A stretch of 63,968 nucleotides of DNA, counting the filler, from Thermoplasmatota archaeon (GTDB lineage Archaea; Thermoplasmatota; E2; JACPAO01; JAHFTW01), in the NCBI GenBank assembly GCA_041623215.1. It is 5 parts of 5 records of this genome, joined end to end, with 100 filler letters (N's around TTAATTAATTAA, not from the genome) between each part and the next. Parts side by side here need not be neighbours in the genome. Positions count along the whole stretch, not along the records: positions 31,548 to 46,597 come from JBFJXH010000035.1; 4 more parts are not named here. One strand, given 5' to 3'. Of the stretch, positions 15,877 through 61,755 are shown one piece after another. Position 1 is the stretch's first letter. The number at the start of each line of letters is the position of its first letter. The notes under the pieces are model-generated. The model was not told where the DNA came from and did not search any database. It saw only the letters and a list, made by a program, of their open reading frames with translations. The position numbers and the translations under genes are program-made.

Positions 15877-15976
15877 NNNNNNNNNNNNNNNNNNNNNNNN
15901 NNNNNNNNNNNNNNNNNNNNTTAATTAATTAANNNNNNNNNNNNNNNNNNNNNNNNNNNNNNNNNNNNNNNNNNNN
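15877..15976. other. Artificial contig linker
   Basis: N run flanking TTAATTAATTAA. Confidence 0.99.
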
Positions 15977-22281: not shown

Positions 22282-22413
22282 CGAACGTCCACGATGCACG
22301 GTGGTTATGGGGTTTACCGCCGGGGCCGGCGGGGCAAAAATTAGGAGAATGAGATGGAGTGGGAAAAGATGCCCGAAGGCGGTTTGTGAAGTCGCGTTGC
22401 CACGCTGCGGTGA

Positions 22414-22638
22414 TTAGCCGAACAGGGCGCCGAGGCCGGCAGCGGCAGTCGCCAGCCGTGCAAGCACGGCTCGCTTCCGCCCCTCCCGGCGCGGCTCCTC
22501 ATTCAGTGCTTAACCGAACAGGGCGCCGAGGCCGGCAGCGGCAGTCGCCAGCCGTGCAAGCACGGCTCGCTTCCGCCCCTCCCGGTGCGGCTCCTCATTC
22601 AGTGCTTAACCGAACAGGGCGCCGAGGCCGGCAGCGGC
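22414..22638 (-). repeat. 96-bp tandem repeat: three copies of the last 33 nt of rpl12 separated by two 63-nt hairpin-containing spacers
   Basis: Copies begin at 22414, 22510 and 22606; single differences at 22417 (G vs A) and 22490/22586 (C vs T). Confidence 0.95.
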
Positions 22639-31447: not shown

Positions 31448-31547
31448 NNNNNNNNNNNNNNNNNNNNNNNNNNNNNNNNNNNNNNNNNNNNTTAATTAAT
31501 TAANNNNNNNNNNNNNNNNNNNNNNNNNNNNNNNNNNNNNNNNNNNN
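31448..31547. other. Artificial contig linker
   Basis: N run flanking TTAATTAATTAA. Confidence 0.99.
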
Positions 31548-32085: not shown

Positions 32086-32147
32086 CACGAACCGCCCGGC
32101 TGCTTTGACAACGGCTTTCACAACCGTCCGACGTGGCGGCCTTGGCC

Positions 32148-33650
32148 ATGAGCCTCCTGGAGAATGACGTCATTCGCAACATCGTCTCTCGGTTCGGCTT
32201 CGAGGCCCTGTTCAACACCTATGCGTTTCTGCTGTTGTTTCTGCCAGTCGTGCTGGCCCTCTACTGGCTCATCAAGCCCGGTCGCCCGAGACTAGCCTTC
32301 ATCACCGCCGCGAGCTTGGTCTTCTACAGCTTCTGGGATTGGCGGTTCATCTTCCTTCTGTTGGCAAGCGTCGTGGTTGATTATGTCGCGGCTCGGCGGA
32401 TGGCCGCCGCAGGCCCTGCGCCTGGCCAGGAGCCACTTCATCCGGATGGCCCTGCCGCCGATGACCCGACCGTCCTTCGCGCACGCAAACTGTGGCTCCA
32501 AGTGAGCCTCGTCTTCAATCTCGGGATGCTGGCCGTGTGGAAATACACCGGTTTCCTGGTTGACAACGCGCGCACGCTTCTCAACCTCATGGGAGCCGAC
32601 GTGGCCCCCCCGCACCTGAATATTCTCTTGCCAGTGGGCATCAGCTTCTACACATTTCAGACGCTCAGCTACTCCATCGATGTCTATCGCGGCCGCGTGG
32701 AAGCCAGCCGCGACCCACTGAAGGTAGCGGCATTCGTGACCCTGTTTCCACAATTGGTCGCCGGCCCCATTGTTCGCTACAGCACGGTGGACAAGCAGCT
32801 TGACTCCTTGCCTCGCCGCCCGGATGCATCCTTGTGGAACCACGGCGCCATCCTGTTTGTCATTGGTTTGTCCAAGAAGGTCCTCGTGGCGGACGCCATC
32901 GCCCGCCACATTGACCCTATGTGGCTCGAGGTGGCCCGGGGCGGCGCCCTAAACACCCTTCAGGCCTGGCAAGCGGCGCTTGGTTACACCTTGCAATTGT
33001 ACTTCGACTTCAGCGGCTACAGCGACATGGCCCTGGGGCTGGGCGCGCTATTGGGCCTGCGCTTTCCCGCCAACTTTAACGCCCCCTACCAGGCGCATGA
33101 CCCCAGCGATTTCTGGCGTCGGTGGCACATTAGTTTAGGGTCGTTCCTGCGCGATTACCTGTTCATTCCGCTGGGCGGCAGCCGCTCGGGCACCGCCTCA
33201 ACGCTTCGTAATCTCAGCATCGTGATGCTGCTTGGCGGCCTGTGGCACGGCGCGGCGTGGACCTTCGTGTTGTGGGGGGCCTATCACGGCGTCCTGCTGA
33301 TTGTCCATGCTTTGACCCGGCCGGCCTGGGACCGCCTGCCAGCAGTAGCGGCACGCGCAGCCACCTTCCTATTGGTCACACTGGGCTGGGTACTGTTTCG
33401 TGCGCCCGATGTGCCAAGCGCATTTCGGGTCCTCGCAGCCATGTTGATTCCGCGTGCCAGCCAGATTGCTTGGACTCCGCTTTGGCTGTGGCTGGCAGGC
33501 GGCCTGGCCTTTGTGGCCGTTGTCCGGCCCACGGCCCACCGCGTCTTCACGGCGTCCCGTCGAACCTCCTTCCTGACTGCCCTGCTGCTCATCGCCTGCC
33601 TGGTCGCCATGGGCCGCGGCGGCTCACCGTTCCTGTACTACCAATTCTAG
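32148..33650 (+). CDS. MBOAT O-acyltransferase, AlgI/PatA/DltB type (copy 1)
   Basis: LPVGISFYTFQ, FPQLVAGPIVR, YFDFSGYSDMA, FWRRWH, GLWHGA, FLYYQF. Confidence 0.94.
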   Translation: MSLLENDVIRNIVSRFGFEALFNTYAFLLLFLPVVLALYWLIKPGRPRLAFITAASLVFYSFWDWRFIFLLLASVVVDYVAARRMAAAGPAPGQEPLHPDGPAADDPTVLRARKLWLQVSLVFNLGMLAVWKYTGFLVDNARTLLNLMGADVAPPHLNILLPVGISFYTFQTLSYSIDVYRGRVEASRDPLKVAAFVTLFPQLVAGPIVRYSTVDKQLDSLPRRPDASLWNHGAILFVIGLSKKVLVADAIARHIDPMWLEVARGGALNTLQAWQAALGYTLQLYFDFSGYSDMALGLGALLGLRFPANFNAPYQAHDPSDFWRRWHISLGSFLRDYLFIPLGGSRSGTASTLRNLSIVMLLGGLWHGAAWTFVLWGAYHGVLLIVHALTRPAWDRLPAVAARAATFLLVTLGWVLFRAPDVPSAFRVLAAMLIPRASQIAWTPLWLWLAGGLAFVAVVRPTAHRVFTASRRTSFLTALLLIACLVAMGRGGSPFLYYQF

Positions 33651-37387: not shown

Positions 37388-37547
37388 TGGGGACACTGGG
37401 ATTCGAACCCAGATCGGGTGGTCACTCCGATGGATCAGCGCTCCAGTGAATCGTCACTGCCCAGGAGCTACCCGGGTTTCTGCTGACCCTCTTCTCATCA
37501 TATCCATCACTGGAGCCACCAATGATGCCTGGTTACACCATATCCCC
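37388..37547 (-). tRNA. tRNA-Trp(CCA) with an 87-nt intron at 37/38 (intron 37423-37509)
   Basis: Acceptor GGGGATA/TGTCCCC+A; anticodon stem GGTGG/CCACC with CTCCAG; T-arm GGGTTCGAATCCC; BHB CUCC-AG^U / GGAG-UG^A. Confidence 0.96.
37423..37509 (-). ncRNA. Intron-encoded box C/D guide sRNA
   Basis: C box AUGAUGA (37501-37495), D' CAGA, C' GUGACGA, D CUGA (37438-37435); D guide UCACUGGAGC pairs with the pre-tRNA and N+5 gives C34. Confidence 0.92.
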
Positions 37548-39553: not shown

Positions 39554-40660
39554 GTGCAGGATTTGGCCAAACGGAACCTCATCATCGTGGCGGGCAAAGG
39601 CGGCGTCGGCAAGACCACAACGTCCAGCGCCATTGCCTTGGGGTTGGCCGCGGCCGGGCGGCAGACGCTATTGGTCACCGTGGACCCGGCCAAGCGACTG
39701 AAGGACGCGCTCGGCATGGACGTTGGGCACACGGAGACGCCCATCCAACCGAACCTGCACGCTATGATGCTGGACCCGGAACTTGTCATTCGAGACCACT
39801 TGTCACGCTATGTGACTGAAACGGACGTGGCATCCCACCCCCTGTTTCGCTATGTGACGAATTACTTGCCTGGCCTGAACGAACTCATGGCCATTGGCAA
39901 GCTCAATGACCTCCGCGATGAGGGTCGCTTCGAGTGCATTGTCATCGATACGGCCCCCACAGGCCACGCTTTGTCGTTTCTTTGGGCCCCCAAAGCGATT
40001 CAGGAACTGATGGGCGAACGGTCGCTCCTCAAGTGGGCGATTCGGGGCTACACGGTGTGGCAAAAGGTGTCCGCCACGGCCAAGGGGATGGGGAATCTTC
40101 TCAAGAAGAAGGATGACCGCGAGGCGCCGCCGCCGGACATTGACTTTGAGCGCATCTTCGACGGGATGCGGGAGGAGGCAACCAAGATTCGTGCGTTCTT
40201 GACCGACCCGGAGGCGGCCTGCATGGTGTTGGTAACGTTGCCCGAGAAGCTTCCGGTGCAAGAAACCAAGGAACTCTACGACAAGGTGACCGAGGAACTT
40301 GACATGAGCGTGAGTCACATTGTGGTCAACAAGATGCAACCCGATACGCTGGGCCCGCACGCTGACGCCTTTGATGCCATCGAGGATGACGCCGCGCAGC
40401 GGCAGCGCTTCGTGGCGACCACGGCCAAGGCGGGCAAGGTTGCGCCAGGCTTGGTTGAAGCAATGCTGGAGGCGGCGCGCTTTGGCGAAGTTCGCCGCGC
40501 CATGAATATGGAGCACCTGGCGTTGTTGCATGAGGTGCTTCCCGGTGTGCCGACGGTCCAGGTCCCCCTGTTCCGTCGCGATGTGAATGGCATCAAGCAC
40601 CTCAAGCGATTCCAAGAAGCGCTCGTGCAAGAGCCCCCGAGCCTACAAGCTAGCGCTTAG
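39554..40660 (+). CDS. ArsA/GET3 family ATPase (single domain)
   Basis: GKGGVGKTT, DPA, PGLNE, DTAPTGH, VVNK. Confidence 0.9.
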   Translation: MQDLAKRNLIIVAGKGGVGKTTTSSAIALGLAAAGRQTLLVTVDPAKRLKDALGMDVGHTETPIQPNLHAMMLDPELVIRDHLSRYVTETDVASHPLFRYVTNYLPGLNELMAIGKLNDLRDEGRFECIVIDTAPTGHALSFLWAPKAIQELMGERSLLKWAIRGYTVWQKVSATAKGMGNLLKKKDDREAPPPDIDFERIFDGMREEATKIRAFLTDPEAACMVLVTLPEKLPVQETKELYDKVTEELDMSVSHIVVNKMQPDTLGPHADAFDAIEDDAAQRQRFVATTAKAGKVAPGLVEAMLEAARFGEVRRAMNMEHLALLHEVLPGVPTVQVPLFRRDVNGIKHLKRFQEALVQEPPSLQASA

Positions 40661-41084: not shown

Positions 41085-41388
41085 GGCGGGGACACTCCGC
41101 CAAGACGCACCAGAACCCACCAGGCTACACCCCTCGTGGTCCTCCACCCCGCACTCCCTCAAACGTCGCGCGTTCGCGGTGAGGCTGCTCCCTTCCGGGC
41201 CTGACCCGGTTCCCGCGTCGAAGGACTTCGACCTTCCCTCCGGAAGGCATCCATCCACCGGCCACCTCAAGGGACGAGGCTTCATCGTAAAGCGAGGGCA
41301 CCTGGCGAATCCTAGCTGCCTGGACGGGATTCGGCCGCGCTATAGACTACGCGAAACGGGGGCGCCTAATCCCCACCTAGTCCCCGCC
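41085..41388 (-). ncRNA. ffs: Archaeal SRP (7S) RNA, about 304 nt
   Basis: Helix 8 GGGAACCGGGUCAGGCCCGGAAGGGAGCAGCC; terminal helix GGCGGGGAC/GUCCCCGCC. Confidence 0.95.
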
Positions 41389-41600
41389 AAACGCCGGGGC
41401 GACACACAAGGTGGCGCAAGGCCCGCGACTTGGATGGGGTTCATCAACGTTGGGGGGTCAAACCCCCTGCGCACCAGGCCGCCCGACCGGGGGAGCTGAC
41501 ACGGTTAGACATTGGCTACGACGCGCCCGCGTACGCCACATGCCCCCCACGGGCGATTCGCTACTCCTATCACCGCGAGTGGCACCTCCGGCCCGTGAGC

Positions 41601-43115
41601 ATGAGTCCAGCAGGCGACACCATCCGCCGCATGCTGGCCTACTTCCCGTTTGACGCCCTGTTCAACACCTACACGTTTCTGTTTCTGTTCTTGCCCATCA
41701 CGCTCGCCGGCTACTGGCTACTGCCCAGGGGCCAGGCGCGCTGGCTGTGGATTGGTGGGGCGAGCCTCGTGTTCTACAGCTTCTGGGACTGGCGGTTCAC
41801 GGCCCTATTGGTGGCGAGCAGCGTCGTTGACTTCGTCGTCGCTAAGCGCATCGTGCAAGCTCGCTCGGTCGCGGCTGCAGCCGACCAACCCCAGGACGGC
41901 CCGGGCAGCCGCGCACGTCGCTGGCTACTTGCCAGCATCGTGTTCAACCTCGGCGTGCTGGCCTTCTTCAAGTACGCCATGTGGGGAACGGAGAACCTGC
42001 AATCCGTACTCTCCTTGCTGGGCAGCAACGTGGTCCTGCCCATCCCACACATCGTCTTGCCGGTTGGGATTTCTTTCTACACCTTCCAGACGTTGAGCTA
42101 CACCGTCGATGTGTATCGGGGCCATGTCACGCCCACGTCCGCCTGGCCTCGCTATCTTGCCTATGTGACGCTGTTTCCTCAATTGGTGGCCGGCCCCATC
42201 GTTCGCTACGCCCAGGTTACAAACGACTTTGACGACCTGCCCGCGCGCCTGCCAGCCGAGCGATGGAGTCGCGGCATCTTCCTGCTGGCCGTTGGGCTTT
42301 GCAAAAAGGTGGTGATTGCAGACACCTTGGCAACCGGCGTGGACCCGCTGTGGGCGCGAGCCGCAGCGGAAACCACTGCCACGGCGACCGCCGCGAGCAG
42401 CGTCGGCTTGGACACGCTCTCGGCATGGCTGGCAGTCCTTGGCTACAGCTTGCAACTCTACTTCGACTTCAGCGGTTACAGCGACATGGCCCTGGGGCTT
42501 GGCTGCCTTCTGGGCTTCACGTACCCAATCAACTTCGATGCGCCCTACCAAGCGCGGGACCCGGCCGACTTCTGGCGCCGGTGGCACATGACGCTGGGGG
42601 CCTTCCTGCGCGATTACCTGTACAAGCCGCTTGGTGGAAACCGCCTAGGGCCAAGCCGTACATTGGTCAACTTGTCAATCGTGATGCTGCTTGGCGGCTT
42701 GTGGCACGGCGCCGCCTGGACATTCGTGGCATGGGGAGGCTATCACGGCATTCTTCTGGTCGTGCACCGGTTGCTTCGTGAGCCGTGGGGCGCCCTGCCC
42801 GTTGCGGGTCAGCGGGCCCTGACCCTGTTTCTGGTGATCCTTGGATGGGTGCCATTTCGCGCCCCGGACTTTGCCACCGCCGCCCACGTCCTGCAAGCCA
42901 TGTTCGTACCCAACGGGGCCGATTGGTCGCTTCTTGCACACCCCGTCACCGCCATGCTGCTGGCGGCCCTCGCCATCACCCAATTGGCCCGCCCCGCCAT
43001 CCGCGTAGCAAGCCACCCAACGTGGCGTCACGCAGTTTGGACTTCGCTTTGCTTGGTGGCAGCCATCCTGCTGATGGGCGCCGCCGAATCACCCTTCCTC
43101 TACTACCAATTCTAA
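41601..43115 (+). CDS. MBOAT O-acyltransferase, AlgI/PatA/DltB type (copy 2)
   Basis: Same motifs as 32148-33650; ends SPFLYYQF. Confidence 0.94.
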   Translation: MSPAGDTIRRMLAYFPFDALFNTYTFLFLFLPITLAGYWLLPRGQARWLWIGGASLVFYSFWDWRFTALLVASSVVDFVVAKRIVQARSVAAAADQPQDGPGSRARRWLLASIVFNLGVLAFFKYAMWGTENLQSVLSLLGSNVVLPIPHIVLPVGISFYTFQTLSYTVDVYRGHVTPTSAWPRYLAYVTLFPQLVAGPIVRYAQVTNDFDDLPARLPAERWSRGIFLLAVGLCKKVVIADTLATGVDPLWARAAAETTATATAASSVGLDTLSAWLAVLGYSLQLYFDFSGYSDMALGLGCLLGFTYPINFDAPYQARDPADFWRRWHMTLGAFLRDYLYKPLGGNRLGPSRTLVNLSIVMLLGGLWHGAAWTFVAWGGYHGILLVVHRLLREPWGALPVAGQRALTLFLVILGWVPFRAPDFATAAHVLQAMFVPNGADWSLLAHPVTAMLLAALAITQLARPAIRVASHPTWRHAVWTSLCLVAAILLMGAAESPFLYYQF

Positions 43116-46597: not shown

Positions 46598-46697
46598 NNN
46601 NNNNNNNNNNNNNNNNNNNNNNNNNNNNNNNNNNNNNNNNNTTAATTAATTAANNNNNNNNNNNNNNNNNNNNNNNNNNNNNNNNNNNNNNNNNNNN
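46598..46697. other. Artificial contig linker
   Basis: N run flanking TTAATTAATTAA. Confidence 0.99.
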
Positions 46698-61655: not shown

Positions 61656-61755
61656 NNNNNNNNNNNNNNNNNNNNNNNNNNNNNNNNNNNNNNNNNNNNT
61701 TAATTAATTAANNNNNNNNNNNNNNNNNNNNNNNNNNNNNNNNNNNNNNNNNNNN
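61656..61755. other. Artificial contig linker
   Basis: N run flanking TTAATTAATTAA. Confidence 0.99.

Follow-up and report, generated by a model that had tools for sequence, protein, structure and literature searches.

The D′ guide of the box C/D RNA that forms the tRNA-Trp intron of this Thermoplasmatota archaeon appears to be directed at the ribosome. From comparison of sequences, we consider it probable that the main target of this guide is C1920 in helix 69 of the 23S rRNA, that the intron, once spliced, directs methylation of this base in trans, and that its role at tRNA position C39 has largely been given up. The guide is found across the class and is not particular to this genome. Archaeal sRNAs that target C1920 are already known; a place of such a guide in the Trp intron is what our literature search did not find. 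The window, that is, the whole stretch of 63,968 nucleotides that was analysed, comes from the genome under study (G000) and consists of five joined contigs, C33, C34, C35, C36 and C204, with N-flanked spacers at 15877-15976, 31448-31547, 46598-46697 and 61656-61755. Gene order across the spacers is therefore meaningless. The intron lies on contig C35.

The tRNA-Trp(CCA) gene is located on the minus strand at 37388-37547, with its intron at position 37/38 (cmscan RF00005, 37.8 bits, and sequence reading); ARAGORN run without intron search missed it. The 5′ exon (37510-37547, positions 1-37) carries C34 at 37513, the predicted target of the D guide. The 3′ exon (37388-37422) carries A38 at 37422 and C39 at 37421, and its A41 and C42 interrupt the pairing of the D′ guide. 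The 87-nt intron (37423-37509) is bounded by a bulge-helix-bulge, as read from the sequence, with helix CUCC/GGAG and bulges AGU and UGA. Its terminal stem has 6 bp, GATGGA (37508-37503) with TCCATC (37434-37429). Inside this stem, and on the same strand, come box C (ATGATGA, 37495-37501), the 12-base D′ guide GAAGAGGGTCAG (37483-37494), box D′ (CAGA, one change from CUGA, 37479-37482), a hairpin that separates D′ from C′ (37458-37478, 6 bp, −10.4 kcal/mol), box C′ (GTGACGA, 37451-37457), the 12-base D guide TTCACTGGAGCG (37439-37450) and box D (CTGA, 37435-37438). Box C, the D′ guide and box D′ together make up exactly 37501-37479. Hence, the RNA has what is expected of an archaeal box C/D RNA, namely boxes C, D′, C′ and D in order, guides of 10-12 nt and a terminal stem.

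Rfam sR3 (RF01133) is the best C/D-family match of the intron in cmscan, with 34.8 bits, below the gathering score of 41. The intron has a 16-nt insertion in the spacer as compared to this model, and its D′-C′ spacer is longer than in most of the class. Besides the CAGA of this genome, the D′ box reads CCGA, CCAA or CTGT in the family. The bulge-helix-bulge is absent from the predicted fold of the naked RNA, to which we give little weight because the prediction ignores bound proteins. Genes for fibrillarin, Nop5, an L7Ae-family protein and the splicing endonuclease are present in the genome, which is 88% complete. One strict C/D candidate other than the Trp intron was seen in it (contig C51, minus strand, near 1459); both of its guides form 9 bp with the 16S rRNA of the family.

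The D guide makes 10 bp with the pre-tRNA across the 5′ exon-intron junction (−19.9 kcal/mol), and its N+5 base is C34. The D′ guide pairs with its own tRNA over only 5 bp, UGACC, around C39 (−8.2 kcal/mol) and stops there because A41 and C42 come next. Both pairings are as described in the first-pass annotation of this DNA. With helix 69 of the 23S rRNA of a family member, the D′ guide forms 10 bp (−17.6 kcal/mol) with N+5 on C1920. A published criterion asks for at least nine continuous Watson-Crick pairs over the N+5 base (PMC6009581). Ten are found for C34, and ten for C1920 in the family 23S. The further claim of the annotation, that the guide fits helix 69 rather than its own tRNA, is likely, although a weak activity on C39 may persist.

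The 23S rRNA of this organism had been reported missing from the window; motif search and an Rfam model also failed to find it in the assembly. The helix 69 target was therefore taken from the 23S rRNAs of relatives. With a search pattern that left the target letters free, helix 69 reads TGACCCTCTT in 37 of 37 matches, obtained from 34 of the 197 class genomes, and six of these matches belong to the same family. The proposed 10-nt complementarity with N+5 on C1920 thus holds against relatives. The numbering follows from the supplement of PMC4644070, where this C is alignment position 2186, eight past A2178, the equivalent of E. coli A1912. The perfect guide and its target occur together in one genome in two cases, G014 and G019. 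Family-like contigs from four DNA runs, compared with part of a family 23S, do not differ from it in helix 69; this region is conserved, however, and the contigs are not assignable to this organism. The concern that a better target might exist elsewhere found no support: no other site exceeds 7 bp in a scan of eight 23S and four 16S loci, and none exceeds 6 bp among 41 short tRNA genes of this genome. Finally, the GGTCA core, the part of the D′ guide that tRNA pairing would force, was held fixed, and the chance that a random 5-nt extension of it gives a perfect site in 5,165 bases of 16S and 23S loci is p = 0.003. The loop of helix 69 shows some variation. It reads AACCAUG in most of L031-L048 and L057-L060 (families f4 and f9), where C replaces U at position 1915, the usual pseudouridine site, and AACUCUG in f5.

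Trp-intron loci were collected by patterns or BLAST without fixing the D′ guide, and 147 class genomes were scored; five class genomes and one other, recovered only by a guide pattern, were left out. Helix 69 of G019 served as reference for all scoring, and for non-class genomes this sequence is assumed. As counts of related genomes and not of independent events, the class results are as follows. The D′ guide makes 10 bp with helix 69 in 102 of the 147 genomes and at least nine in a row in 105. At least eight of ten pairs are Watson-Crick in 145, and the N+5 pair is Watson-Crick in all 147. The longest run with the own tRNA is at most 5 bp in 129 of 145 genomes, 6 bp in 15 and 7 bp in one. There are 565 cells in which the two targets differ. 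The guide letter agrees with helix 69 in 540 of them, with the tRNA in 3 and with neither in 22. Guide position 2 might pair with the D box; without it, the tally becomes 420 for helix 69, 2 for the tRNA and 19 for neither. The annotation had suggested looking for covariation of guide and helix 69. The rRNA side could not be scored in the class, its target being invariant, while the guide side does follow helix 69.

Runs of at least 9 bp with helix 69 are distributed over the families as 9/14 in f1, 4/4 in f2, 1/1 in f3, 53/89 in f4, 19/19 in f5, 0/1 in f6, 6/6 in f8, 11/11 in f9 and 1/1 in both f10 and f11. The exact guide 10-mer is found in nine of the ten scored class families, in GC-rich and AT-rich genomes alike. 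About 30% of the class guides are mismatched: the helix-69 run is only 5-8 bp in 42 of the 147 genomes, 36 of them in f4, and the tRNA and helix-69 duplexes are tied in 16. The discriminating letters, at guide positions 8, 10 and 11, are all A, and A at position 10 is also frequent in tRNA-type guides (10/19). Among 23 genomes of other classes, the stronger duplex is with the tRNA in 18 and with helix 69 in 3, with a tie in 2. Of 13 named records of Archaeoglobi, Thermococci and Halobacteria-like archaea, ten could be parsed, and in these the guide forms 8-9 of 10 pairs with position 39 of its own tRNA. As far as sequence comparison can tell, the helix-69-type guide of the class probably has one origin and has been conserved for long, and G325/L330 and G418 are perhaps one or two further origins.

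Several other variations were noted in these introns. The loci L016-L030 and most of f4, f5, f8 and f9 combine an ATGATTA-like box C with an ATGA box D, a combination that suggests compensation within the k-turn stem, and guide position 1 changes from G to T in these lineages. Long additional segments lie outside the C/D core in the Trp introns of f2 and f3 (L025, L143-L145 and L142); those of f2 follow box D, and that of G033 precedes box C. The tRNA-Trp of f35 (L128, L129, L131 and L133) has an extra insertion of about 30 bases in its T-loop, probably a second intron. In Methanobacteriales (L220, L222-L225, L230, L269 and others), the D′ guides of the Trp introns fit neither their own position 39 nor helix 69 and are often near-palindromic with a GCGC core. 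When six of them were compared with one Methanobrevibacter rRNA locus, in a scan that covered less than a full 16S, the best match was 7 bp with wobbles, and one reached 9 with three G-U pairs. A second retargeting is possible, as is decay.

Genomes that have lost the intron retain the D′ guide in two cases. Genus g5 belongs to the same family and is represented by 13 genomes. Its tRNA-Trp is intron-less with G39 in eight, still has the intron in two and was not recovered in three. In G031, a C/D RNA starts 13 bases downstream of the intron-less G39 tRNA-Trp; this RNA keeps the D′ guide unchanged, while its D guide has diverged and lost the fit to C34. G027 is similar, with the C/D RNA 2.7 kb from tRNA-Trp. 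The D′ guide has therefore been kept where its tRNA target is gone, with neither intron nor C39. An exact pattern found no copy of the guide in the other six of the eight genomes with intron-less tRNA-Trp; in those six, the guide is dispensable or has drifted. Together with the indifference of the guide to changes in its own tRNA, the two survivals favour the retargeting to the ribosome that the annotation had proposed, which remains a reading of the comparison.

The same guide also occurs on stand-alone RNAs. A box-guide-box scan of the 197 class genomes gave 122 hits in 112 genomes, namely 111 Trp introns, the two RNAs of G027 and G031, and nine hits without a second box pair (control hits: 8). 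One pattern hit, in G025, was rejected as a C/D RNA for the missing second box pair. Another isolated copy, L379 (G084:C18:1699-1722), consists of a perfect guide followed by CTGA, again with no second box pair; the intron guide of that genome is mismatched, and the isolated copy is probably due to chance. Outside the class, the same C box-guide-D′ half was seen on 22 clear stand-alone C/D RNAs in the 229 non-class genomes that the phylum sample contains. Their partner guide forms 10 bp, with at most one G-U, over C34 of the intron-bearing pre-tRNA-Met of the same genome in 16 of the 17 checked, and they match the Rfam families sR41, sR3 and sR-tMet. Only 4 of the 22 non-class genomes with a tRNA-type Trp intron have the stand-alone guide, so many such lineages may simply lack the C1920 mark.

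Family f36 shows both arrangements. G244 and G306 have a tRNA-leaning intron guide together with a stand-alone RNA. G325 combines a helix-69 intron guide with an sR-tMet-like RNA; the D′ guide of the latter is shorter by one base and is now in register with C1921. Strict mutual exclusion of the two RNAs is contradicted by this genome. No sR-tMet-like RNA was found in the genome under study. Its elongator tRNA-Met (C82:3115-3131) is intron-less, unlike that of many other Thermoplasmatota, and so are all 20 clear hits in f1 and f2; the remaining class families escaped the pattern. A move of the guide does not require that the tRNA-Met intron be lost, as G033, G035 and G325 keep that intron, in G033 and G325 alongside a helix-69-type Trp guide.

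Work on Haloferax and Pyrococcus suggests how such an RNA could act. Excision at the bulge-helix-bulge would release a stable, probably circular, intron RNP. The D guide would act on C34 of its own pre-tRNA and the D′ guide on helix 69 of the 23S rRNA, where fibrillarin would 2′-O-methylate C1920 in trans. The comparison with other Thermoplasmatota further suggests that the Trp intron took over a role held there by stand-alone sRNAs, and that methylation of tRNA C39 was largely given up. The letters GACC(C) are common to the tRNA junction and helix 69 and bring C39 and C1920 into register, which would make such a switch of target easy. It may have required two to four point changes, or copying of the 5′ half of a stand-alone sRNA. 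A single letter separates the intron guide of G306 from the helix-69 type, so a point change suffices, and copying from a stand-alone RNA is equally possible. A fuller scenario seems to us evenly balanced between right and wrong. In it, the C1920 guide left the tRNA-Met wobble guide and settled in the Trp intron throughout the class, the intron became the sole source of Cm1920, which ties methylation of the intersubunit bridge to tRNA splicing, and some lineages, after intron loss, kept the guide as a free RNA next to the tRNA gene or in its vicinity.

Other explanations of the D′ guide have to be weighed. The guide could serve both targets, methylating C1920 in the 23S rRNA as well as C39 in the pre-tRNA, with the D guide on the same molecule helping the short tRNA duplex. 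Guide positions 3-6 indeed suit both targets in nearly all class genomes, and in G306, G244 and L248 the guide forms 7 bp with the tRNA while 8-9 of its 10 positions pair with helix 69. Some guides have changed in the direction of their own tRNA: that of G006 has shifted towards it (7 bp), and in G001, of the same genus, a T pairs with A41 and interrupts the helix-69 run. The 9-bp rule is also relaxed in PMC6009581 for a second guide close to a strong one, with a maximum of one mismatch. However, the tRNA duplex here has 5 bp followed by two mismatches, whereas the tRNA-type guides of the named outgroups have 8-9 pairs. In addition, the guide almost never compensates changes at the intron end (1 of 124) or at position 41 (1 of 8). 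This double function is therefore unlikely.

The match to helix 69 could also be what is left of a decayed tRNA guide, made of the shared GACC core, an unpaired A-rich tail and base pairing between the D box and the end of the guide. In the predicted fold of the naked RNA, GGGUCAGC is paired to the D-box region. Moreover, the letter at guide position 1 switches between G and T in step with CTGA and ATGA at the D box across the class, and many f4 variants are richer in A. Simple decay is nevertheless very improbable in view of the 10-mer kept through nine of ten families of differing GC content, its identity with the guides of stand-alone sRNAs, its persistence without the tRNA target and the low probability of a chance extension. 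We find it hardly credible that the guide, while methylating little or not at all, serves as a chaperone for the folding of helix 69 when the large subunit is assembled. In favour of this, most of the family has a non-canonical D′ box (CAGA, CCAA, CCGA, CTGT and CGTG), and conserved pairings in helix 68-69 that are incapable of methylating are described in PMC6009581. But D′ is CTGA or CCGA in f4, f5, f8 and f9, none of the 147 class genomes departs from the Watson-Crick N+5 pair, and Cm1920 is reported in another archaeon (PMC5389701). Direction of C1920 methylation by the intron thus remains our preferred reading.

The closest known systems differ from this one in the second target or in the host of the guide. 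In Haloferax volcanii and Pyrococcus (sR50; Rfam sR3, RF01133), the intron has the same host gene, the same position, the same four boxes and the same D guide for C34 (PMC7994747). The second guide marks tRNA position 39 there, as the annotation had stated (PMC7994747, PMC2584109). The intron is a stable circle in Haloferax, and in vitro work favours action in trans (PMC7994747, PMC2584109, PMC3326292, PMC4033218). Trans action of the excised intron in vivo is called open in PMC2584109, where the guide for 34 and 39 is stated to be always intronic. The present RNA shares with the sR3/sR50 type the 37/38 intron of tRNA-Trp(CCA), the bulge-helix-bulge ends, an endonuclease gene in the genome and the D guide on C34. 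It departs from it in the RF01133 gathering score and in the fit of the D′ guide to position 39.

The target C is shared with several other guides. C2186, equivalent to C1920, is the predicted target of four sRNAs in four of seven species (PMC4644070). The D′ guides of Mma sR104, Sac sR20 and Mka sR47, which are near-identical to this one, are assigned to it in the supplements of that paper, and Iho sR201 is a further guide. Cm1920 is reported as confirmed in N. equitans, with Neq sR20 as guide, the data being not shown there (PMC5389701). In these two sources, the C1920 guides appear as sRNAs of their own, combined with other rRNA guides or with orphan guides, whereas the present one sits in a tRNA intron with a tRNA guide as partner. 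The sR-tMet-like sRNA of other Thermoplasmatota (Rfam RF02163, RF01126) has an identical C box-guide-D′ half; it is a free gene with its D guide on C34 of pre-tRNA-Met, unlike this intronic RNA with its D guide on tRNA-Trp. Composite and transposed C/D sRNAs are described in Pyrobaculum (PMC6009581), the composite ones likewise sharing one guide with each of two sRNA families; as presented there, these are single-species cases and free sRNAs, whereas the RNA described here is intronic and is fixed in a whole class. Our literature search, with subscription papers largely outside its coverage, found no published Trp-intron guide directed at rRNA.

In bacteria, Cm1920 in helix 69 is made by TlyA (PMC12805891), at the same site as predicted here. 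TlyA is a guide-free protein enzyme, in contrast to the guide RNA of the present case. The check for tlyA that the annotation had called for gave no TlyA above the family cut-off in the 197 class genomes, with one weak partial match. By our own reading, a single FtsJ-family gene resembles RlmE, and no S4 domain was seen in it.

The Trp intron is the standard case of self-modification, in which an intron acts on the RNA that hosts it. If such an intron is truly directed at rRNA, this would be direct natural evidence for trans action of an excised intron, and a job outside the tRNA may explain why a tRNA intron is retained. The comparison places one guide in three homes, namely a free tRNA-Met guide, the Trp intron and a free RNA beside a tRNA that lacks the intron, and living genomes contain intermediates. 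The predicted mark lies at the subunit interface, on the helix where bacteria use TlyA. The surprise is limited by the fact that chemistry and site were already known.

Some unrelated features of the window were also noted. An archaeal SRP RNA is found at 41086-41387 on the minus strand, near a gene for a Get3/ArsA-family ATPase at 39554-40660 on the plus strand. The genes at 32133-33650 and 41430-43115, both on the plus strand, encode two similar membrane proteins that, from reading of their translations, we take to resemble MBOAT-family acyltransferases. A near-perfect repeat with a period of 96 bases and a self-match of 97.7% extends over 22410-22638.
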